DNA of 64,000 nucleotides from a virus (taxonomy: Duplodnaviria > Caudoviricetes), in IMG/VR virus record IMGVR_UViG_3300047160_004777, positions 1 to 64,000 of that record. One strand, written 5' to 3'. Below, one piece after another: positions 23,063-34,374 of the stretch. Position 1 is the first letter of the stretch. Every line of letters starts with the position of its first letter. A model generated the notes under the pieces. The model was not told where the DNA came from, did no database searches, and saw nothing but the letters and a program-made list of their open reading frames with translations. Position numbers and translations under genes: made by a program.

Positions 23063-24994
23063 GTGCCGCTCCTGACCGATCTGCGCGAGACACTTAGGCT
23101 CCCATCGGCCGAGCCTCGCCAGCCGATGGCGCCATACAACCCGTTTTCGCCGTATCCGGGCGGGTCGATCTTCCCGCCGATGCCCGGCTCGCCCCCGCCG
23201 AGTCCGCCGATCCCGCCGCCAGGTTGGATGGGCGTGACTGCGCCGCAACCGGACAAGAACCTCAAGGGCGGTCGTCTCACGTGGGACGACATGAACTACT
23301 TCGGCGCGGGGATGCCGGTCATCCTTCCGCCGGACAGCATTTCCGAATCTTGGCGCAAGCTCGATCTCGACTCCGACCACATCCGCTTCATGAGTGTTCC
23401 GCAGCTCCTGCGCGTGCTCGCGGAGTCGAGCCCGGACGTGTCTCGCGCGCTTTGGGACTTCCTAAGGTTGACCAATCCGGGCTGGAGTGCGACGGCCTAC
23501 ATTCCGGGCACGCAGACGCCGATGCCGGCAGGGCAGAAGGTGGTCGATGACTATCTGCGTCGGTTGACCAAGCTGTACGGCTCGGTGGATGTGCCTATCG
23601 GCCGGATGCACTTCGCCGCGTTCTTGCGGGGAGCCCTGTTCACGGAACTCGTTCTCGATGAGGACGCTCGCACGGCGATAGACCTCGCGGTGCCCGATCC
23701 GCTGTATGCGCGCTTCAAGCAAGGGTGGGACCCGGTGCGGGGTCGAGTCTGGCTGCTCGGGCAGTTTCAGCTAGGGCAATGGGTCGATCTGTCCACGCGG
23801 GAAACCGTAGGCTACATCCCCATCGACCCCGCGCCGGCGAACCCGTACGGTCGGGCGCCGGCGACGCCCGCCATCTTTTCGTCGTTGTTCCTGCTTGGGC
23901 TACTGATGGACTTGCGTCGCGTCGTTGCCCAGCAGGGCTATCCGCGCTACTGGCTGTCGATTGCGCTCGAACCGTTGAGGAAAACCACGCCGCCCTCAAT
24001 TCAGCAAGACCCGCTCGCTTGGAAAGAGTGGGTAGACACGACCATCGGCGAGGTGCAGAAAGCCTACAGCGCGCTTCAGCCAGACGACGCGTTCGTGACG
24101 ACGGACGTGGTTACGGTGAACGCGCCCAAAGGTGCTATCTCGGCGGACGCTATTGCTGGCATCGACCCACTCATCCGTGCCCTCGAACGGCAGCTTGCTC
24201 GCGCTCTCAAGACGATGCCGCTGCTTATGGGTGTGATCGAGGGTCAATCCGAGGCTAACGCGAACCGCCAGTGGGAACTGCAAGCCGCTGGTATCAAAGC
24301 GATCCAGCATTTGTCCGAATCGCAACTTTCCGAGTGGTGCACGCTCGCGTGCGAGGCGCAGGGTATTGCCGCCGAGGTACGGTGGCAATTTGCCGAACTA
24401 CGTGCGGCCGAGAAGTACCGCGACGCGATGACGGACGGTTTGCGTATCGACAACGCGACGAAACTCTGGATGATGGGGTTGATCAATCAAGAGACGTTCG
24501 CCGACATGACTACGGGTAAGCCGGCCGATCAACCTGAACCGCGTCTACTGCCAACGACCGAGGCCCCATACATCTCCAGCACGACGACCGGCTCGCCAAC
24601 GGCGTCCGGCGAGCCATCCAATCCCGGCTCGCCTGGTCGCCCGTCGCCTCGTCCGACCAAAGAAGAAGGCGAGACGGGCGGTGAGGCCGGCGAGACGGGG
24701 TCGAGCTTGAGCCGTATTCCGACTGGTCTCCGTTGGCCAGAGTTCCGATTCTGGCGCAACGGCAAGGCTGAGAAGAACGGCCATAGCCAGGGCGACTATC
24801 CGCTACGTGTGCCCGGTATGCCATTGGCGTACATTCCCGTCGAGGTCACGTACGATGAAGGTGAGCGGCGGCGGATCACGCGGTTGTGGGACGAGAGTGT
24901 CCCGGAAGCAGCAGGACTACTCGACGCCCACGCACCCGCGCCTCCGTCGCCGCCCGAGGAATCCTGGACGCCTGCTCTGAAACAGGTAACGTAA
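23063..24994 (+). CDS. portal protein
   Basis: Follows terL; 643 aa; HhPID..P..PYG.......A and LA.ALKT.P.LMG patterns; Pro-rich termini. Confidence 0.8.
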   Translation: MPLLTDLRETLRLPSAEPRQPMAPYNPFSPYPGGSIFPPMPGSPPPSPPIPPPGWMGVTAPQPDKNLKGGRLTWDDMNYFGAGMPVILPPDSISESWRKLDLDSDHIRFMSVPQLLRVLAESSPDVSRALWDFLRLTNPGWSATAYIPGTQTPMPAGQKVVDDYLRRLTKLYGSVDVPIGRMHFAAFLRGALFTELVLDEDARTAIDLAVPDPLYARFKQGWDPVRGRVWLLGQFQLGQWVDLSTRETVGYIPIDPAPANPYGRAPATPAIFSSLFLLGLLMDLRRVVAQQGYPRYWLSIALEPLRKTTPPSIQQDPLAWKEWVDTTIGEVQKAYSALQPDDAFVTTDVVTVNAPKGAISADAIAGIDPLIRALERQLARALKTMPLLMGVIEGQSEANANRQWELQAAGIKAIQHLSESQLSEWCTLACEAQGIAAEVRWQFAELRAAEKYRDAMTDGLRIDNATKLWMMGLINQETFADMTTGKPADQPEPRLLPTTEAPYISSTTTGSPTASGEPSNPGSPGRPSPRPTKEEGETGGEAGETGSSLSRIPTGLRWPEFRFWRNGKAEKNGHSQGDYPLRVPGMPLAYIPVEVTYDEGERRRITRLWDESVPEAAGLLDAHAPAPPSPPEESWTPALKQVT

Positions 24995-25072
24995 AGCCAG
25001 TCCCAATCCAATGGGGTAGCAGTCCCGGTGGCGCAATTCAATGCAGGCCGGCCTTTCTACTAGGAGATTGGG

Positions 25073-25174
25073 ATGCTCGCGACGGGTCTACTCTTTCCAG
25101 TTCCAGATCACGCGAACGTACGTCGGCCATTTGCGTCCAAACTGCTGCTCAGAACAGTTAGGAGCACCAACTAA
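25073..25174 (+). CDS. possible 33-aa sORF coupled (TAATG) to the 25174 gene
   Basis: AGGAG upstream of ATG 25073; its stop overlaps the next start. Confidence 0.3.
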   Translation: MLATGLLFPVPDHANVRRPFASKLLLRTVRSTN

Positions 25175-25821
25175 TGCCGGCCACAGTACAGGCGCAATAC
25201 TTCGGCGCCAGTGCGACGCTGCCCGCCGGGGCCAACGCCGAAGGTGGCGCGACGTTCAACCGCGAGGACACGCTGACCGGCACGACACCCGTACCGATCC
25301 CTGTTGCGGCGGGCGTGAACTTTTCGTGGATCAAGCAATTTCAACTTGCGATCACCGCGACGAGCACGACCACGATGAGCAATCGCACTGTGCGTATCTC
25401 GGCCGGGTTCGCGACCGGGTTGGGAATGCATTGGAAAGCTGTCGCTCAAGCGAGCTACATAAATCAGACCTCGGCCTCCGGAGCACCGGCAGACACCACG
25501 GGTACGAATAACGCCGCCACCGCGCCCTCGACGTACACGGCGTTCACAACCTCTGCCGTGCAATACGACAACACGAGTCAGGCGACTTCGAGCACGGGCA
25601 TTGGTACGACGCAGCTTCTAGTGGTCTTGCTTGCCGTGGACGCCACGTACGCGGGTGGTCCGGGGTCGGCTAGCTTGGGAAACATCGTGCTGGGCTACGA
25701 CGAAGCCCACCACCGCGACAAATTGGAACGGGACGCTGTAGCTTGGGGACGCGATCCGATTGGTACTTCGGCCCGGCCTGATCGGTGTTGCCGACGACGA
25801 GGACGCCGCGATAGTTGGTGA
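25174..25821 (+). CDS. putative virion structural protein (Thr/Ala-rich beta) with a 37-aa C-terminal extension
   Basis: AGGAG RBS; beta-rich body up to GYDEA, then a basic tail carrying the RDAV..DPIGTS motif. Confidence 0.75.
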   Translation: MPATVQAQYFGASATLPAGANAEGGATFNREDTLTGTTPVPIPVAAGVNFSWIKQFQLAITATSTTTMSNRTVRISAGFATGLGMHWKAVAQASYINQTSASGAPADTTGTNNAATAPSTYTAFTTSAVQYDNTSQATSSTGIGTTQLLVVLLAVDATYAGGPGSASLGNIVLGYDEAHHRDKLERDAVAWGRDPIGTSARPDRCCRRRGRRDSW

Positions 25822-25867
25822 TTGAGGCGAATGCGCGCGAGGCGTATGGTACGCAAGGAGCGATTCG

Positions 25868-26224
25868 ATGACTGATACACCCATCGGTCGGCCGACTGGC
25901 GGAAAGCCGATCAACCTTGCTCAGCTCCAGAGCGAACTGGCCACGGCAGGTATTACGGTCACGGGATTAGCCTTGGAAGGCGACTACATCGAGGAGTACG
26001 ACGACACGGGTCAGCTCACCGACTTCCCTGCTGCTCAACAGGCGACGGTAGATCAGGTCATCGCAGCACATGTCGCTATGCGGGACAAGAGTCTCGAAGA
26101 GTTGTCAACTGAGTTCAACGCCAACCCGACGGACATCGCTCGTCGGCAGGTGCTTATGGCTGAGTACGTCGGCCTGACGCCGATAGAGCAGGTGCCGATG
26201 ACTGCGGCAGATATGGCGACCTGA
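25868..26224 (+). CDS. hypothetical (probably virion-associated) protein
   Basis: AAGGAG RBS; INLAQL..EL...Q.TVDQVIAAH pattern. Confidence 0.65.
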   Translation: MTDTPIGRPTGGKPINLAQLQSELATAGITVTGLALEGDYIEEYDDTGQLTDFPAAQQATVDQVIAAHVAMRDKSLEELSTEFNANPTDIARRQVLMAEYVGLTPIEQVPMTAADMAT

Positions 26225-26511
26225 TGCCTACCATTCCTACGGCAACACCCATCTCGCTCCAGGCGCAACTCGCGAGTGGCGTCTGGCCGGCGCCGCCAGC
26301 TTGGACTACGAGCGATCCGGACACCTCGACCATCTCTTTGGTGGATGGGTCCGGTCAGTTTCTCGCTACGGTGACCACGACGGCCGCGACCGTGGCGGGT
26401 ACGCCGTTACATATTTCGATTGAGGCTGGCGCAATGCAGGGCAGCATCGACCTCGACGTGCAAGACGGAGCGGTCGCACCAGGCTCAGCATTGGTCGTGC
26501 CGGTCGCGTGA
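26224..26511 (+). CDS. small Ig-like structural protein
   Basis: PAWTTSDP....SLVD.SG...TVT...G......G...GSIDLDV beta pattern. Confidence 0.55.
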   Translation: MPTIPTATPISLQAQLASGVWPAPPAWTTSDPDTSTISLVDGSGQFLATVTTTAATVAGTPLHISIEAGAMQGSIDLDVQDGAVAPGSALVVPVA

Positions 26512-26906
26512 TCCAAGAACGGCCAGAGGTCCTCACTGTCCAGACGTGCCCGCAGTGTCAGGACATCTTCACCTGGCTGGCGGTCTACAAGGACGGTAGC
26601 GCGCTCTCGGAATGCTCGGGGAACGGGATACACGCCGCGTTCGCGCATATTGAGCAGGACCGGCTAGCGTCCATGATTCTGATTCCCTTGCGCGATGGCT
26701 ACCCACAGGTCGCCGTGGCGATGACAGACGAAACGATGCGACCCATCTTCTTTCGGCGGCGGCTGATCGAACTCAATATGGGCGGTGGCGACGGCGGACA
26801 CAACACGATCCACTGTTTGGGATGGCGCAAGCCAGGAATCGAGAGTTTCACCTTCATCTTTGAGGATGGCAGCATCGTGATCTCGGACGACAGGAACGCG
26901 GTCTGA
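26508..26906 (+). CDS. hypothetical protein
   Basis: RPIFFRRR...HCLGW...FIFEDGSIVIS pattern; GTGA overlap. Confidence 0.6.
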   Translation: MIQERPEVLTVQTCPQCQDIFTWLAVYKDGSALSECSGNGIHAAFAHIEQDRLASMILIPLRDGYPQVAVAMTDETMRPIFFRRRLIELNMGGGDGGHNTIHCLGWRKPGIESFTFIFEDGSIVISDDRNAV

Positions 26907-26924
26907 GGGAAGGAGGGTAGAGGT

Positions 26925-27044
26925 ATCCCTTTCGGTAGTGAATGCGAGTTCGCCGATTTTGATGCGTGCGTGCGTCACCACAAGGACAAGGACGATCCGG
27001 ATGCCTACTGCGCCGAGATCATGCGGAGCACAGAAGAGCATTGA
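26925..27044 (+). CDS. 39-aa protein with an apparent non-canonical ATC start ([M]PFGSECEFADFDACVRHHKDKDDPDAYCAEIM...)
   Basis: AGGAGG at 26911-26916, 8 nt before ATC; in-frame stop at 26904 and no ATG/GTG in between; missing from the ORF track. Confidence 0.45.
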   Translation: MPFGSECEFADFDACVRHHKDKDDPDAYCAEIMRSTEEH

Positions 27045-27074
27045 AAGGGACGTAGCAACGGTCTGTTGCTGAGC

Positions 27075-27773
27075 ATGAACGGCCACATCGAGACACGCGA
27101 CCGCGACTTTGGCGAGGCGCTGCGGCCGATTGGTCCCCGACCGTGGACGTGGGACGCGGCGAGCGCGGTCTATCTCGATGCGAACGGCAACCCGCTACCG
27201 CCGGCCGACCTGCGCGGCCTCATGGCTCGTTTCCTCGAAGTCCAACGCCAACGCGCCGAACAAGCGACAGGACAGATGGTGTCGAACCAGATCACGGTTC
27301 CCGAATGGGAAACGGAGATGCGGGCGATTATCAAGGACGCCTATGGCGCGTCCTATATGCTCGGTCGCGGCGGTCGATATCAGATGACCACTCGCGATTG
27401 GGGCAAGCTCGGCCAGTCGGTCCGCGAGCAATTTCAGTACCTGAACCGTTTCGCGGCTTCGTTCGCAGCAGGCTCGGTATCAAACGCTCAAGCGCTGATG
27501 CGTTCGGACCTGTATCCGCTTTCGGCTCGCCAGGTGCAATCGCTCGGCTACAGCTACGCGATAGGTGCACCAGAGCTACCCGCGCATCCGGGTGACGGGT
27601 CTAGCGAATGTTTTGGGAATTGTGGGTGCGCGTGGGAGCTACAGCAGACGACGCTCGATGATAACCAGCCAGGATGGGAGTGCTGGTGGGAACGCGGCAA
27701 GACTGATTCGTGCGAGACGTGTATTCGACGGGAGAACGAGTGGGCGCCGCTTAGGCTACGCGCGACTGGATGA
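27075..27773 (+). CDS. head morphogenesis (minor capsid, gpF/gp7-like) protein
   Basis: WE..MR..IK..Y...Y.LG.GG, WG.LG..VR.Q..YL.RFA, C-terminal PGDG.S.C..NC.C.W...SC.TC. Confidence 0.75.
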   Translation: MNGHIETRDRDFGEALRPIGPRPWTWDAASAVYLDANGNPLPPADLRGLMARFLEVQRQRAEQATGQMVSNQITVPEWETEMRAIIKDAYGASYMLGRGGRYQMTTRDWGKLGQSVREQFQYLNRFAASFAAGSVSNAQALMRSDLYPLSARQVQSLGYSYAIGAPELPAHPGDGSSECFGNCGCAWELQQTTLDDNQPGWECWWERGKTDSCETCIRRENEWAPLRLRATG

Positions 27774-27958
27774 TTCGCTCGGGCGAATCATCGGAGGACG
27801 AGACCATGTTGATGAGCGATGACAACCCGAACGAGAAGTTCATGACGAAGATGCCGCATCACATGCCGACGCCGCCCAAGCAGTACAAGCCGAAACCTGT
27901 TCCGCCGCCCCAGAGCGTCAAAATGCCGGGGATACGAAGCAGTGGACGCAGGAAGTGA
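27770..27958 (+). CDS. hypothetical Pro/Lys-rich protein
   Basis: Overlapping start and stop codons with neighbours. Confidence 0.45.
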   Translation: MIRSGESSEDETMLMSDDNPNEKFMTKMPHHMPTPPKQYKPKPVPPPQSVKMPGIRSSGRRK

Positions 27959-28185
27959 TCCTCGTGGCGCGGCCTACGGTCTGGCACGGAACAGAGGCCG
28001 AGTTGCGCGAACTCGAACGCGCCGCTCAACGAAATTGTCGGCAGCATGACAACCTACCATGTGACGAGCTATGCGCTCATAGGCTGCTCGGTAATCAGCG
28101 ATACATTGACGGACTCGTGTTTATGCGGCGCCTCCGCGAGCGTCTCGAATTCGGAGAACATGGACTCGCCGATAAAGTGTCCTGA
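27955..28185 (+). CDS. hypothetical protein
   Basis: GTGA overlap; WHGT..EL..L..A...NC pattern. Confidence 0.55.
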   Translation: MILVARPTVWHGTEAELRELERAAQRNCRQHDNLPCDELCAHRLLGNQRYIDGLVFMRRLRERLEFGEHGLADKVS

Positions 28186-28327
28186 GTGCAGCGAGTCGAT
28201 GCAGCTCATCGGCGAGCGCGTGTATCGGTGTCCGAACGGCCACACGTTCCAGGCAAAAACTGCCCGAACGTTGCGCTACTCGCGCGGCCTGCGTCCGGTC
28301 GGGGCTCGTCGGAACCCACCTCGCTAG
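28160..28327 (+). CDS. small Zn-ribbon protein
   Basis: GGAG RBS; CPEC...YRCPNGH. Confidence 0.5.
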   Translation: MDSPIKCPECSESMQLIGERVYRCPNGHTFQAKTARTLRYSRGLRPVGARRNPPR

Positions 28328-28418
28328 GCCAAAAAGACCGGCAAACGGGCGAATCTGCGCCTCCGGTCATGCTAGGCTCCCGGTTCATTACATCGGTGGC
28401 TAGCTGACGAGGTAACGA

Positions 28419-30500
28419 ATGATCGACACCGGCGACGACGACGTGTCCGTCGAAGCTATGGACGAAAGCGAGGATCGCCCCGTACCGCGTCCAGAGCAGC
28501 AACTGATGTTGGCGCGGATGCAGTTGCTGGAAGGCACCAGAGCCCGTCGTCAACCCAAGGGACCGGACGAACTACCGGAAGAACTCCTCAACCAGATTCA
28601 AAATCCGGCTGTCCTCGACAATGGCCTGCCGTACATCAATACGGCGTGGGCTTCGACCAATCTTATCGACAGCTACCACACGCGCATGCGTGATTCGTCG
28701 TTGCGTAACTACGCCGACGACGCGACCAAGGGAATCTCGCTTCAGAACTCACATCGCGAGAATGAATTGCCCTTCGGCCGCACGTTTCTCGGTCGGTACA
28801 AGCCTGGCCGTGGCTCAAACCCAGCCAGGGCAGAGATGGACTTTTACATCCCGCCCAACTTGAACGTGAACGGCGTGAACTCGAACGACGTGATCCGCGC
28901 CATCGACTACGGTACGGCGCGCGACGTAAGCATTGGGTTCTACGGTGGCGACTTGCGCTGCTCCATCGACGGCAAGCTGATGATGGGCGACTTGCTCAGC
29001 TTGCTCCTGTTCGGCGGTGATGACGATTCGGCCGACGTACGCGACCCGAACGCACCTTGTAACCACCTTCCCGGTTTGGAATATGGGGTGCGTGACCGGG
29101 AAGGGAAGCTGACAGGTGATCGCGCGGTCGCCATTGGGGAGGTTGATGGAGCGCACTGTGCTGAGTTGAGCATCGTGTTCGACGGGGCGACACCGATGGC
29201 GCAAATCAGTGGTCGAGCGGTGCCGGTTCTGGCGAAAGCTCAGCGCATGTTGGAGATGGACGCCTTGTCGCCGACCACGGCGATGGCGTTGGAGAGGCGC
29301 TATAGGGGCGTGCGATTCCCGACACTTACGAATCGCAAGTTTTCGGTGTCGCACGCGAAGGTGCGCGATTCGGCGGGCAGTCCCCCTCCCAGTGAGCCAG
29401 CCGCCGAATCCGTGCCGGAGCCTGCGACGGAGGGACGACCGATGGTTGAGGAACGCGCGGAATGGAGCACGGCCTATAAGAACGATCTGCCGGACAGCGC
29501 GTTCGCCTACGTGGAGCCCGGCGGCAAGAAAGACGAGGACGGCAAGACGACACCGCGCAGTCTGCGTCACTACCCGCATCACGACAAGGATGGTTCGGTA
29601 GACGAGCCGCACTTGAAGAATGCGTTAGCTCGCGCGGCTCAAAATCCAGATAGTGGCAAGAAAGCCATGCCGCATTTGGAACGGCACGCCAAAGCAATGG
29701 GCATAGGAGATCGCGCAGTGAGCAATGGAGATCGCGCAGTAGTCGTAGACAGCGACGATGTTGACTTTCGAGATATGACCGATATGCCGGCCCATTTCAA
29801 CAACGCTACGGGCGGCACGGCGAAAGCCAGCGGTGACTTCGGCACCGCTACAGGCAAGGGGGTGGGACCCGGCGCGGAGCCAGAAACGATCACCTTGGAC
29901 CCGGATCAGGTCAAGGCCGATGATCCGGACGACTATATCCCGAGGTCCAAGAGAGCGCCGAAGGCTCCCACCGACGAGAACCCCGATCCCGATGGCGATG
30001 GTGACGACGACCGAACCCCGCAAGGTGACACGGACCACTCGCACTGGACACCAGATGGCAAACCCAAGTTTCAAAGGAGTCGAGTAGCTACCGTGGCCGA
30101 TGATGCGCTTTCCGGGGTTCGTTCCGCTCTCGTGGCGGCTGGTCTAGCGCCCGAGGGCTTTGTGGGTGACGTATCGGTTCGCTTCGCGGAGATCAGCAAG
30201 GAAATGTCGGCGCTGCGCCGCTGGGCGGATGTTGGGCGAGAAGCGCGCGACAAGCTGGTCGAGGACTGCAAGAAGGCCGGCGTGCGAGCGTTCGGGACGA
30301 GTGGGTTTTCGGAGAAGGCGTATGGGCCAGTCCTGGCTCGCGGGAGCTACGAGGAACTCCAGGACTTGTTTGCGCACTTCGAGGAACAGGGCCACAAGCG
30401 GTTTAGTGGTGGGCGAGCGACGACCGATGCCGAGCCCGAGAAGGTGCCTGCCGAGACCAGCGCGAAGCGCCGCGTACCAGTCCAGGCTTACCGAGCCTGA
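28419..30500 (+). CDS. prohead protease/scaffold fusion
   Basis: LIDSYHT.M...LRN, SH...LP.GR, VSIGF, ELS.V..GA.P.A protease-like motifs; internal WSTAYKNDLPDSAFAY domain; acidic linker and helical C-terminus. Confidence 0.8.
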   Translation: MIDTGDDDVSVEAMDESEDRPVPRPEQQLMLARMQLLEGTRARRQPKGPDELPEELLNQIQNPAVLDNGLPYINTAWASTNLIDSYHTRMRDSSLRNYADDATKGISLQNSHRENELPFGRTFLGRYKPGRGSNPARAEMDFYIPPNLNVNGVNSNDVIRAIDYGTARDVSIGFYGGDLRCSIDGKLMMGDLLSLLLFGGDDDSADVRDPNAPCNHLPGLEYGVRDREGKLTGDRAVAIGEVDGAHCAELSIVFDGATPMAQISGRAVPVLAKAQRMLEMDALSPTTAMALERRYRGVRFPTLTNRKFSVSHAKVRDSAGSPPPSEPAAESVPEPATEGRPMVEERAEWSTAYKNDLPDSAFAYVEPGGKKDEDGKTTPRSLRHYPHHDKDGSVDEPHLKNALARAAQNPDSGKKAMPHLERHAKAMGIGDRAVSNGDRAVVVDSDDVDFRDMTDMPAHFNNATGGTAKASGDFGTATGKGVGPGAEPETITLDPDQVKADDPDDYIPRSKRAPKAPTDENPDPDGDGDDDRTPQGDTDHSHWTPDGKPKFQRSRVATVADDALSGVRSALVAAGLAPEGFVGDVSVRFAEISKEMSALRRWADVGREARDKLVEDCKKAGVRAFGTSGFSEKAYGPVLARGSYEELQDLFAHFEEQGHKRFSGGRATTDAEPEKVPAETSAKRRVPVQAYRA

Positions 30501-30521
30501 GAACGAAAAGGAGAGTAAGGA

Positions 30522-30959
30522 ATGCCTGTTACTGGTCGCCAAGCAGTTGGCTTTGATGACATCCGCTTTGATGCGATCACCTTGTGGGCCGACAACTCGA
30601 CCATTGTGTTCAACGTCACGCAGCCGGACGGTTCAGCGCAGGTCGGGTTCGCGGTCACGTACGGAGCTGGCACTGATGTAGTCAAGTTGTGCGTTGACGG
30701 CGATCCTGTCCTCGGCAGGTTGCTGAAGGTCGAGGCAGACGGCGCTTGCTCAATTCAGCACAAGGGCATGTGCCACCTGGCTGCTGGCAACGCGGCGACG
30801 ATCACGCCGGGCATCAAGCTCGTCGGGGCACTAGGACCGGCGTCTGCGGCTGGCTACGTTCGCAATGCGAACTCGGCCACTGCTGCCGAGTTGGTCAAGA
30901 TGGGACCCATCGCCGTAGACAACTCGGACATGACGAACGTCATTGTGGACTTCCAGTAG
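30522..30959 (+). CDS. capsid decoration/cement protein
   Basis: Lies between scaffold and major capsid; G.AV...G....V.L..DG..V.G.L.KVE.DG pattern. Confidence 0.7.
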   Translation: MPVTGRQAVGFDDIRFDAITLWADNSTIVFNVTQPDGSAQVGFAVTYGAGTDVVKLCVDGDPVLGRLLKVEADGACSIQHKGMCHLAAGNAATITPGIKLVGALGPASAAGYVRNANSATAAELVKMGPIAVDNSDMTNVIVDFQ

Positions 30960-30980
30960 TCGGTAGGAGGACGACAAATA

Positions 30981-32426
30981 ATGGCTATGGTTCTCTCGCC
31001 GGCGCTGCCGGAAATCCGCCGCCAGTCCCCGGAGGACACGATTCGGGCGCTGGGCACGAACGGGGCGAACTTGTATCGGATCGCCTACGACCACGGCATG
31101 AACGTGTCCCAATTCCTCGAAAATCAAGACCCGACCGCAGAGCGCGAGACAGAGGATCGCTCGCTGGATGCGTACGAGCGGCTCGTCCAGGCGACAGGGC
31201 TCGTGATGACGCCGATCCCCGAGATTGGCCTTCGCGCCTCGACCTGGGAGGAATGTCTCGCGACTCCCGAGCGCCGAGCGCTGATGCCTGAGTTTATGTC
31301 GCGCGTCTGGCGTCGAGCGCACACGGTGGGCGGCCCGCCACTTCAGTCCGACGTGTGGAACGGTCAGATTCAGACCCGTGCCGTGCTGATGTCTGGAGAC
31401 GTGGCGCCTGGTGCATTGGCTAACCCGTGGTACGACAATCCGGAAATTCGTGCGAAGCGGTTGGTTCCGCCGATTCCGCTCGAAAGGATCGTGGCCCGAA
31501 CCACCGCTATCGACACGGACGCCTACCGTACGTTGTACGTAACGGACGACTACGGCAACGACTCGTACCGCATGAAGCGCATCGCTGAGGGTGCCGAGAT
31601 TCCCTCGACGTACCTCATCACCGGCGAGCACACCTTGCGGCTCTACAAGTTTGGCCGGGCACTCCGGGCAACCTACGAGCAGTTGCGGCGCCAGCGGGTT
31701 GACCGCATCGCCTTCGTCATCGCGCGTATGGCGATTCAGACCGAAATCGACAAGGTGAGCATCGGCATGAACACGCTCATCAACGGTGACGGTAACGCCA
31801 ATACTGCGGCGGTGGTCCAGAACAACACCGCGCTCGACTCGGCAGCGGTCGCTGGTACCTTGACGCTGAAGGCATTCTTGGCCTTCCGCCTCAACTTCTC
31901 GCTGACCTACCTGCCGGACATCATCCTGGCACAGCAGCCAGCGATGATGCAGCTCCTGGTCTTGCCGGTGGCTCAGGGTGTTCAGGTGCCGTTCGCGTTG
32001 CTGCCAGGTAACGCCTTCGGGACAATCCAGCCGATCTACAACCAGTTGAACTACGCGATTGAGTACGGCATTACCGCCGACGCTCCCGCGCTCAAGCTGG
32101 TCGCCTTCCAGTCCAACATCGCGTTGGAGCGCGTAACCGAAGTCGGCGGGAATGTTTCGGAGGTGGATCGCTTCATAAATAACCAGACTCAGCTTCTTAC
32201 TATCACTGAGGTTGAGGGGTACGGCGTGATCGACCCTAACGCGACACGCATACTCAACGTGAATGCCACGGCGTCATCGTCCCAAATGCAGAGAGATGCT
32301 GTCGTTATGGCGAGTGATCCCGTGGGAACGTCTGAGAAGCGGGGTCGCCATTGCTTGAAGCGCGAAGCTAACGGCAAGAGTAGGTCGCGGCGCGGCGCGG
32401 ACCACTCGAACGGGATCGACTTCTAG
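30981..32426 (+). CDS. major capsid protein with a 52-aa C-terminal extension
   Basis: MKRIAEGAEIP, LYKFGRALRATYE.LRR...D motifs; strong AGGAGG RBS; capsid-like terminus EGYGVIDPNATRILNVNA followed by a basic tail with RDAV..DPVGTS. Confidence 0.9.
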   Translation: MAMVLSPALPEIRRQSPEDTIRALGTNGANLYRIAYDHGMNVSQFLENQDPTAERETEDRSLDAYERLVQATGLVMTPIPEIGLRASTWEECLATPERRALMPEFMSRVWRRAHTVGGPPLQSDVWNGQIQTRAVLMSGDVAPGALANPWYDNPEIRAKRLVPPIPLERIVARTTAIDTDAYRTLYVTDDYGNDSYRMKRIAEGAEIPSTYLITGEHTLRLYKFGRALRATYEQLRRQRVDRIAFVIARMAIQTEIDKVSIGMNTLINGDGNANTAAVVQNNTALDSAAVAGTLTLKAFLAFRLNFSLTYLPDIILAQQPAMMQLLVLPVAQGVQVPFALLPGNAFGTIQPIYNQLNYAIEYGITADAPALKLVAFQSNIALERVTEVGGNVSEVDRFINNQTQLLTITEVEGYGVIDPNATRILNVNATASSSQMQRDAVVMASDPVGTSEKRGRHCLKREANGKSRSRRGADHSNGIDF

Positions 32427-33382
32427 TCCAGAGGGCGCCAGCTTTGTCCGAGAACCAGCCGGCCGATGGTCGTTCGACTGACTCCGTATCGCGCACCGAG
32501 TTCATCTTGCGTCCACTCGCCGGTTGCGTACAGTTCGGAAATGAGCCGGCGTACCTCGGGATCGTCCAGCGAACCGCTTCCCAAGGGGCCGGTATGACCA
32601 CGGCGACCCTTGCGAATCATGTCGTGCATGTTGTCGAGAGCCGTTCCCTCGCGCAGATGGTCGGGTTCCTGGCATATGGGTCTGTCGCAGTTATGGAGCG
32701 CGTGGGGAGCAAGCTCGCTCAGGGGTTTGCCGAGCTTCAGCGACAGGCCGAATCGGTGGGCGGTCGTCATCACTGTTCCGGTCCAAAACAGGCCGTAACC
32801 GGCCTCGTTCGTGGCGCCGAGCCAATCTCTTCCGCGACAGGCAGAAACCTTCTCGTTGTTGACCAAAGCCCAGTAGCGTTGCGTCGGTGTCGGGCGCATT
32901 TTCGGCGGTCGTTGCACAAGCAATCGGCAGCGCGGCTTCCCGCAAGATTTCTGCTCCTTACCGCCGGCGCGACGAGGGATATAGACCTCTTCGCAAATGG
33001 GACAGACGCGCGGTTCCTCGCGCAGCAGGCCGCGTTTCCGTTTCGCGGCTTTGAGCAAGGCGCTAGGCGTAGAACCGGCCCCGCGACTTGCCCAACTCGC
33101 TTTCAGGACTTCGCTGCGCGGCCCGCAAACGCAATGCGCCAGCGCAACACACAGCGTAACGTTACACACGAGAGCTACTATGTAATCGTCCGGGACGAGT
33201 CCATAGGCGAGTTCCCACCGCACACGTACAACACGCGGTTGTTTGGGACGGGCATCCTCGCCGCAAAAGATTACGGGGGAACCTTCTTTGTTCAGCGATC
33301 CTGTCCAAAGCTCGTGACCCGAGTGGCCAGGCGAGATCAGTGTCGCTATCCGTTCCGACAGGACCGTATTATTGAGAAGCAT
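32423..33382 (-). CDS. free-standing HNH homing endonuclease (two HNH_3-like modules plus C-terminal HTH)
   Basis: W.GA.N..GYG.F...TAHRF...ALH.CDRP.C..PDHLREGT.LDNM.DM; degenerate first module; antisense to the operon. Confidence 0.85.
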   Translation of the reverse strand: MLLNNTVLSERIATLISPGHSGHELWTGSLNKEGSPVIFCGEDARPKQPRVVRVRWELAYGLVPDDYIVALVCNVTLCVALAHCVCGPRSEVLKASWASRGAGSTPSALLKAAKRKRGLLREEPRVCPICEEVYIPRRAGGKEQKSCGKPRCRLLVQRPPKMRPTPTQRYWALVNNEKVSACRGRDWLGATNEAGYGLFWTGTVMTTAHRFGLSLKLGKPLSELAPHALHNCDRPICQEPDHLREGTALDNMHDMIRKGRRGHTGPLGSGSLDDPEVRRLISELYATGEWTQDELGARYGVSRTTIGRLVLGQSWRPLD

Positions 33383-33481
33383 CGCGGGATGTCCTCCGTG
33401 GTGTCGCGCTCCCGGCTGTTGACTCAGTGCGGGAGCATTCCGTTTTCCGCGATTGTATCGTTCTAACTAGGAGGTACCCGA

Positions 33482-33823
33482 ATGACGGATACACCGAGCC
33501 CGACGACCAGTCCCGCCACCGAACCGGCCGCACCGACCGGCGACGCGCCGGCGCCAGACGGGTCGCGTACGCAGGGCGAAGGTCCCGACGTATACGACGG
33601 GTCCGAGATCGAAAAGATGTGGGTTCAACCCGCAGCGCAACACAAGGCGAGCGGCATGGTTGTTCTGTTCGAGCGCCACCCGGCCCACCCGGACGGCGAG
33701 GCGTTTATTGGCGGCGACGGACCGGCGGTCGAGGTTGCCAAGACACCGGCCGTGATGGCGAAGCTCGACGCCGGCGACCTCGAAGAAGCCGAAGCGCCCG
33801 CACCACCCGCTCCACCGAGCTAG
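33482..33823 (+). CDS. hypothetical protein (paralog of 33826)
   Basis: AGGAGG RBS; VVLFERHPAHPDGEAFIGG. Confidence 0.7.
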   Translation: MTDTPSPTTSPATEPAAPTGDAPAPDGSRTQGEGPDVYDGSEIEKMWVQPAAQHKASGMVVLFERHPAHPDGEAFIGGDGPAVEVAKTPAVMAKLDAGDLEEAEAPAPPAPPS

Positions 33824-33825
33824 AT

Positions 33826-34374
33826 ATGGCCGAACGAAAGACTGAAGCAGCGATTGCTGAGTACGAACGCGAGCGGGCCGTCAAGCGCGGTGTTGCAGCG
33901 GGCGACCTCGAAACGTTGGTCGCGCGCACGATCTGGGTGCTTTCGGGTCGTGCCGACGACCGCGTGGTGATCTACGAACGCGACCCGCGCCATCCGGCAG
34001 GCGAAGCGTTCGTGGCGGGCTCGTGCCCGGCGCGCGTGTATCGTACGGAAGAGATGGAACGGCTCATGCTCACCGGGGAGCTGGTCGAAGTGCCCGCGCC
34101 TCGCAAGTTCGTCAAGGTGATGGACGAGTTCACCAACGAGGAACGCGACGAGCCCAACCCGAAGTATCCGTTGGATATCGACATCGAGCCCTACGAACAG
34201 ATGGTCGTGAATCCCGGACGACCCACGCCCCTCGGTCGTCGGATGGACCCAACCTTGTGGGACGAAGAGACGATTCGAGAAGTCCAAACACGCGTGGCGA
34301 AACAGCCGCGTGAGGTTCGGCTTGCTCCAGGCGGGTACGTGCCCCGTCTCCAGGACGTGGACCGGCCTGCATAG
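33826..34374 (+). CDS. hypothetical protein (paralog of 33482)
   Basis: VVIYERDPRHPAGEAFVAG. Confidence 0.7.
   Translation: MAERKTEAAIAEYERERAVKRGVAAGDLETLVARTIWVLSGRADDRVVIYERDPRHPAGEAFVAGSCPARVYRTEEMERLMLTGELVEVPAPRKFVKVMDEFTNEERDEPNPKYPLDIDIEPYEQMVVNPGRPTPLGRRMDPTLWDEETIREVQTRVAKQPREVRLAPGGYVPRLQDVDRPA

Follow-up and report, generated by a model that had tools for sequence, protein, structure and literature searches.

C-terminal tails shared by the major capsid protein and an unrelated late protein of a metagenomic phage are probably relics of homing endonuclease cassettes inserted at stop codons

The stretch of DNA analysed here (the window) covers the first 64 kb of the 79,006-bp IMG/VR phage record IMGVR_UViG_3300047160_004777, which has a G+C content of about 61%. 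Two plus-strand genes of the window encode proteins that end in related peptides. The open reading frame (ORF) at 25174-25821, whose product is referred to as the 25174 protein, runs through 178 residues to GYDEA and then through 37 extra codons (tail A), and the major capsid ORF at 30981-32426 runs through 429 residues to NVNA and then through 52 extra codons (tail B). An earlier note, made from the sequence alone, had described both tails in these terms, and had pointed out that each begins directly after a GCC codon and that the TAG stop of the capsid ORF overlaps the stop of an antisense HNH gene in the CTAG at 32423-32426; all of this proved accurate. Neither ORF contains a stop or a change of frame between YDEA or NVNA and its tail, and frameshifting or stop read-through was accordingly rejected as a route to the tails. 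The two genes are divided as follows.

25174-25707, plus strand: 178-aa body of the 25174 protein, modelled by AlphaFold2 (AF2) as a beta-sandwich and belonging to an uncharacterised phage family; homologues place its normal end at GYDEA-stop.
25708-25821, plus strand: tail A, 37 codons and TGA, made up of a 15-codon leader and 22 codons that overlap a former HNH start.
30981-32267, plus strand: body of the major capsid protein, 429 aa, HK97-type, Phage_capsid_4 (Pfam PF25209, E=3e-10; PHROG 3922, E=2e-44).
32268-32426, plus strand: tail B, 52 codons and TAG, of which 32283-32363 is homologous to the 5' end of the type-1 cassette discussed below.
32364-32423, plus strand: remainder of tail B, to which no origin is assigned.

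The tails align without gaps over 24 codons (25720-25791 and 32283-32354), with 11 identical residues and 41 of 72 identical nucleotides, and eight of the 11 identical residues are encoded by differing codons in tails A and B; these counts, repeated here, agree with those of the earlier note. The best 24-residue segment holds 12 identities, against 10 or fewer in 5000 shuffles of both tails. Searching the six frames of the 79,006-bp genome with tail A by tblastn returned tail B at E=3e-5, with the runner-up at 0.018, and found two copies of the peptide only. An nhmmer search of the genome with a DNA profile built from four tails of foreign loci, described below, matched 25709-25818 (E=3e-22) and 32291-32355 (E=0.003), followed by a match at 0.61. 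Because tail B is the second-best match in the genome to a profile of foreign tails, its relation to the cassette holds at the DNA level too, and chance similarity of the two tails is ruled out by the shuffles, tblastn and the DNA profile together. An antisense ORF was also considered as the conserved frame of the shared block, and was rejected since its identity is lower. The tails had further been said to use codons rare elsewhere in the genome, which is true of tail A, where G+C at third codon positions (GC3) is 0.49 compared to 0.74 in the gene body, and hardly of tail B (0.71 compared to 0.79).

The earlier note had proposed comparing the ends of homologues, and this was done for both families. 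All 120 of the capsid homologues listed, at identities from 75% to 41%, end at the NVNA position, in ...LN[IV]N[AG]. Tail B lies outside the capsid fold, since matches to the Phage_capsid_4 and PHROG major head protein profiles extend no further than residues 421-428. For the 25174 protein 118 homologues were compared, of which 110 terminate in a YDEA-type motif, three are fragments, and five, the window's included, are tailed. Outside the window, homologous 37-aa tails are found on P0122, P0123, P0135 and P0161 and at locus L013. In cultured phages, megablast found no match for 25000-33500 and tblastn none for the 25174 protein.

The peptide shared by the tails had been put forward as a dedicated, portable virion tag, an idea that is not supported. 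A tail profile run with hmmsearch against 1.84 billion (1.84e9) representative proteins, clustered at 50% identity so that tailed members may be hidden, matched two spurious tandem-repeat translations and no credible tag family. Neither profile A1 nor tail B by itself turned up a carrier in scans of IMG/VR contigs, and a scan of JGI metagenome contigs with the tails gave the known L001 contig only. Since neither the profile search nor the contig scans yielded new carriers, the peptide is not a widespread tag. A tag resembling the encapsulin cargo-loading peptides (CLPs) would be expected to recur on several unrelated proteins independently of any mobile element; here, the shared peptide is carried by two host families only, no listed capsid homologue is tailed, and all foreign carriers have an attached HNH gene.

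Each foreign tailed allele (P0122, P0123/L001, P0135/L002, P0161/L003 and L013) carries a same-strand HNH_3 gene that starts within the tail. The endonuclease domain of these relatives, HNH_3 (PF13392), follows or overlaps the tail, and some distant relatives possess AP2 (PF00847) as well. At L001, where the order is a 218-aa tailed gene, the HNH gene and a 117-aa gene, the host frame reads RDPTGTSSRRDRHCRRRGRRDSW-stop, and the +1 frame encodes the endonuclease's N-terminus, VIQLALRPGVIAIADDEDAEILGKYQW...; read in the HNH frame, the shared DNA gives VIQLALRPGVIAIADDEDAEILGK. Gene callers start P0243 at a GTG within the R-D codons, and at L013 the HNH start is placed at this GTG, which yields MIRLELRPGLTVLADDEDG. 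Where the host frame gives DPxGTS..R.R.C-RRRGRR, the +1 frame gives the N-terminus of the HNH protein, VIQLxLRPGVIAIADDED, and GAC GAC GAG GAC read as CGA CGA CGA GGA gives the Arg run of tail A. Because the host and HNH frames overlap in this manner, DPxGTS, R-x-R-x-C and the Arg run of tail A are an HNH start read out of frame.

The pattern of substitution in the overlap is in keeping with two superimposed frames. Tail codons 16-37 differ by about 20% at each of the three codon positions, while in the body of the same gene third positions are about 70% different, that is, saturated. Such even conservation across three positions is consistent with dual coding. The arrangement is not a general property of HNH_3 genes: among more distant HNH_3 genes, examined at 80 loci, every upstream ORF found with at least 90 codons ends before the HNH match begins, so that read-through overlap is specific to this cassette lineage.

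In the window itself both sense HNH genes are dead, with 24 HNH codons left in tail A and 14 in tail B.

25751-25825, plus strand: dead sense HNH remnant at tail A, in the +1 frame, translating as AIRLVLRPGLIGVADDEDAAIVGD-stop; its GTG has become GCG and the remainder is deleted.
25868-26224, plus strand: following gene, 118 aa, in the same place as the 117-aa gene after the HNH gene at L001.
32314-32358, plus strand: dead sense HNH start in tail B, in the +1 frame, translating as GTG-VIPWERLRSGVAIA-stop.

The remnant in tail A matches the N-termini MIRLELRPGLTVLADDEDGAIVG of P0243 and VIQLALRPGVIAIADDEDAEILG of L001. Window and L013 share 80% nucleotide identity from the end of the host gene to 25819, where homology ends, which indicates that the rest of the endonuclease gene at tail A was deleted; consistent with this, a tblastn search of the genome with the L001 HNH protein matched 25778-25819 only. 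From its position and size, the 118-aa gene that follows is probably a homologue of the 117-aa gene of L001. The remnant in tail B contains a run, TCGCCATTGC, that is common to L001-L003, and its HNH frame is poorly conserved (3-8 of 23 residues).

A filled and an empty allele of the same site can be compared directly. Loci L008 (filled) and L012 (empty) are 97-99% identical in the flanks around a gene of the 25174 family, and 601 nt in L008 (3873-4473) substitute for 19 nt in L012 (3543-3561). These 19 nt begin with the last base of the gene's final codon, run through the TAG stop and a 9-nt spacer, and end with the second codon of the next gene. With its insert, L008 gives the upstream gene a new end and the downstream gene a new start, a GTG that overlaps the HNH stop (GTGA). 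Separately, about 650 nt present upstream in L012 (2365-3012) are missing from L008, truncating the 5' end of the host gene. There is thus presence/absence polymorphism at a fixed site, seen in the L008/L012 pair and in the confinement of tail plus HNH to a small minority of the family. Together with the HNH genes that overlap all foreign tails, the pair bears out in essence another suggestion of the earlier note, that of an element inserting in frame just before stop codons.

The extension that is added differs with the element. L008 and L009 bear a sister (type-2) cassette, with an HNH 64% identical, and in both a different, hydrophobic 25-aa extension follows YDEA; because a sister cassette brings a different extension, the extension tracks the version of the cassette and not the host protein. 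The type-2 extension is strongly hydrophobic and transmembrane-like, with 9 of 25 residues identical between L008 and L009, which is odd for a protein presumed to belong to the structural module.

The capsid locus is more complex, in that a second endonuclease gene and a probable native end of the capsid gene lie downstream of tail B.

32423-33382, minus strand: antisense HNH gene, apparently intact, 319 aa, with two HNH_3-like regions and a C-terminal helix-turn-helix (Pfam, PHROG).
33464-33466, plus strand: TAA, followed by AGGAGG and by ATG at 33482; the probable original capsid stop and the ribosome-binding site of the next gene.

In the relative L004, the capsid gene ends in GCT GCC TGA and is followed by a homologue of 33482-33823. 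This comparison delimits the insertion in the window as 32268 to about 33463 (1196 nt), and the TAA at 33464 would accordingly be the native capsid stop. The antisense gene matches Pfam HNH_3 (E=5e-6) and several PHROG families of HNH endonucleases; it is the sole HNH_3 match in the genome and is unrelated to the sense cassette. Its HNH_3-like regions lie at about residues 8-91 and 163-262, ahead of the helix-turn-helix. A search for its relatives gave one distant IMG/VR match, at 33% identity and with uninformative flanks.

Both tails are probably the translated relics of homing endonuclease cassettes that inserted at stop codons. A free-standing gene of HNH_3/AP2 type, with a short 5' leader, would have entered two conserved late genes precisely behind their final sense codon, GCC, whereupon the host ORF would have lost its stop and would read the leader of about 15 codons, and then the first HNH codons in the wrong frame, until a stop was met. 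The shared motif would in that case reflect common descent, with RDAV derived from the leader, DPxGTS..R.R.C from VIQLxLRPGV.AIA read one base off, and the CRRRGRR of tail A from ADDEDA read out of frame. The sense HNH genes would have decayed later, to their present remnants of 24 codons at 25174 and 14 at the capsid gene, with an unrelated second HNH gene now lying antisense at the capsid locus. It is most likely, from the reading frames, that both proteins are made with these junk-derived C-terminal extensions. Homology, overlap, presence/absence polymorphism and HNH decay are seen in the sequences themselves; we infer that the cassettes were active in homing, that events at the capsid locus followed this order, and that the phage tolerates the tails without profiting from them.

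Several observations weigh against a history of this kind. No relative was found with an intact sense HNH gene behind the capsid gene, so that what is proposed for tail B is based on 65-81 nt of homology, and of the two frames in tail B that of the HNH gene is the less conserved. Leader codons 1-15 show an excess of third-position differences in the host frame (6/5/11 and 5/5/11, p 0.01-0.02), as does tail B compared with L013 (6/9/15 at positions 1/2/3, p=0.011), and these statistics, with p values of about 0.01-0.04, come from short stretches of few, phylogenetically linked sequences whose pairs are not independent. Furthermore, the deletion at 25819 that removed the HNH gene left the whole ORF of the tail intact. 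Taken at face value, the codon counts suggest that the tail peptide is under weak purifying selection, something not expected if the tails were relics and nothing more. They also temper the claim of the earlier note that the peptide was conserved and not the DNA: homology is detectable in the DNA, which contradicts one half of the claim, and the third-position excess in the host frame hints at the constraint on the peptide that makes up the other.

It is conceivable, though unlikely, that the leader peptide of the type-1 cassette is maintained by selection on any late protein behind which it lands, and so outlives the endonuclease. Such a leader might keep the host protein competent for assembly, or might couple translation of the HNH gene to that of a heavily translated late gene. 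Equally sceptical treatment is due to the idea that the tail, once cassette DNA, has become a C-terminal module with a function, which selection retained when the endonuclease was lost; this is quite improbable as things stand. Such a module might serve as an arm on the surface, tolerated or useful, as a His/Cys site for metal or cross-links, or as an arm that binds nucleic acid. Host-frame identity of 11-12 of 24 residues, compared to 6-7 expected from column shuffles (p 0.002-0.07), points in this direction, as do the third-position excess in the leader codons and in tail B versus L013, the fact that both tails are open though both HNH genes are dead, with the deletion at 25819 ending just past the tail, and the precedent of mobE-derived tails that turned essential (PMC3045599). 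However, the statistics derive from the few, linked and short sequences already mentioned, and AF2 models tail A with low confidence (predicted local distance difference test score about 52-56) and a single short helix. Moreover, in this protein family the tail that comes with the sister cassette is hydrophobic and unrelated, no further carrier proteins are known from the searches above, and most members of the family are untailed.

Excision at the RNA level would remove the tails from the proteins altogether. If element A (115 nt) and element B (1196 nt, with the antisense HNH gene) were self-splicing introns or otherwise excised from RNA, the proteins would end at YDEA and NVNA; exact excision would leave GCC-TGA in one gene and GCC-TAA with a good ribosome-binding site in the other, and there is precedent in the Cluster J mycobacteriophages (PMC3706429). 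This is nevertheless very improbable. Rfam gave no match at E<=1 in 25000-34000 or around the cassette in five related loci, in a covariance-model search that could miss a ribozyme core split by a 960-nt ORF, and the lone match in a related locus (ALIL in L009) lies elsewhere, antisense and far below the gathering score. Folding energies, those of the joined 5' and 3' parts of element B included, fall within those of shuffles (z -1.4 to +1.2). The boundaries do not resemble those of introns either, as exon 1 ends in ...GCC and not in U, element B in ...GTTC and not in G, and element A in ...TGAT. A ribozyme core would not fit into element A, the cassettes of L001 and L008 leave no space for a ribozyme, and the shared block is the protein-coding start of the sense HNH gene in relatives.

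That tail B is an assembly chimera, or a lesion specific to the record of one metagenomic contig, is scarcely credible: the capsid-tail junction has no second copy in any collection searched, and the listed short Logan unitigs, from low-coverage soil runs, span neither 25708 nor 32268, but soil-metagenome unitigs identical to the window cover 32393-32559, one run has depth in the bin 32175-32461, the insertion is neatly delimited by GCC and by TAA plus a Shine-Dalgarno sequence, and tails of the A type recur in independent metagenomes, which also makes the artefact that the earlier note had entertained unlikely for tail A.

Comparatively little can be said of the 25174 protein itself. Its body (residues 1-178) is the beta-sandwich of the AF2 model; no Pfam or PHROG family matches it, Foldseek found nothing in the PDB at E<=0.001, and a wider structure search returned generic pilin- and Ig-like sandwiches only (Z about 6), which assign no function. 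A distant paralogue with 34% identity over about 100 residues lies beyond the window, at genome position 65792-66100 on the plus strand. In the window the gene directly follows that of the portal (PHROG 3753; 23063-24994, plus strand), and at L006, L009 and L012 members of the family lie amid tail or fibre-like genes with Peptidase_S74, Laminin_G_3 and Gp80 neighbours. Between portal and capsid genes, a 693-aa protein (28419-30500, plus strand) has no Pfam match and a weak PHROG match, and is presumably a fusion of protease and scaffold, as in L004 (697 aa).

Among published cases the ShiLan-domain type of insertion comes closest, in which HNH genes are hidden out of frame in DNA methylase genes of actinobacteriophages (Arsenault, Gosselin and Gogarten 2025, PMC11855218). 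The geometry at the 5' boundary is the same: the host frame is open into the insertion, the HNH gene lies in another frame, and a GTG occurs early (at 18 bp there and at 43-45 nt here). There is likewise no detectable intron or intein, and distribution among relatives is patchy. In ShiLan-type genes, however, the insertion is internal, the entire HNH gene is overprinted and the host frame rejoins the gene, whereas the cassette described here lies terminally, at the stop codon, overprinting is confined to the first 14-23 HNH codons, and the host protein ends 37 codons on. The present hosts are also late genes of the structural module, and the sense HNH genes of the window are already lost.

Insertion of mobE in nrdA of Aeromonas phage Aeh1 gave rise to C- and N-terminal tails on NrdA-a and NrdA-b (Crona et al. 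2011, PMC3045599). In both systems, sequence that arose with the insertion of a free-standing HNH gene is translated as tails of the host protein; in Aeh1 the gene is split and the tails are essential for assembly, while here the gene is unsplit and the tails are known from sequence alone. The free-standing seg and mob genes of the T-even phages spread by intronless homing into intergenic spacers and leave neighbouring ORFs intact. With these the present cassette shares a small endonuclease gene between conserved genes of a tightly packed operon, presence/absence polymorphism among close relatives and eventual decay, and it differs in removing the upstream stop and, in L008, in also providing the start of the next gene.

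The capsid gene of mycobacteriophage LittleE contains a group I intron with an antisense endonuclease, an ORF-less relative of which resides within BAKA's tail genes (PMC3706429). The window offers a similar pairing: its capsid gene holds a long element with an endonuclease, another gene of the structural block holds a short one lacking an ORF, and the two have a 5' segment in common. The mycobacteriophage elements are spliced, as seen by reverse-transcription PCR and U/G hallmarks, whereas no ribozyme signature, structure or splice-site hallmark was found here, and the segment in common is the coding start of an HNH gene. In phage T7, 10B is a minor product in which 10A is extended at its C-terminus by a -1 frameshift. 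The likeness lies in a capsid protein of HK97 fold with a C-terminal extension of about 50 aa; the extension described here differs in being in frame on every copy and derived from a mobile element.

What had looked like a virion tag would thus be explained as the footprint of a selfish element, with one type of HNH cassette placed exactly between last codon and stop in two unrelated and highly conserved late genes, that of the major capsid protein included. For annotation, this means that an odd C-terminal extension beside an HNH gene, or one with an ADDED-like peptide in another frame, should be interpreted as read-through into a cassette instead of a new domain. If the tails are made, each capsid subunit would carry about 50 residues of endonuclease-derived sequence, illustrating both the tolerance of the HK97-fold C-terminus and the capacity of mobile elements to add sequence to essential proteins. 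If the leader peptide is selected, HNH cassettes would be a route to new, heritable C-terminal peptides on capsid and other late proteins.

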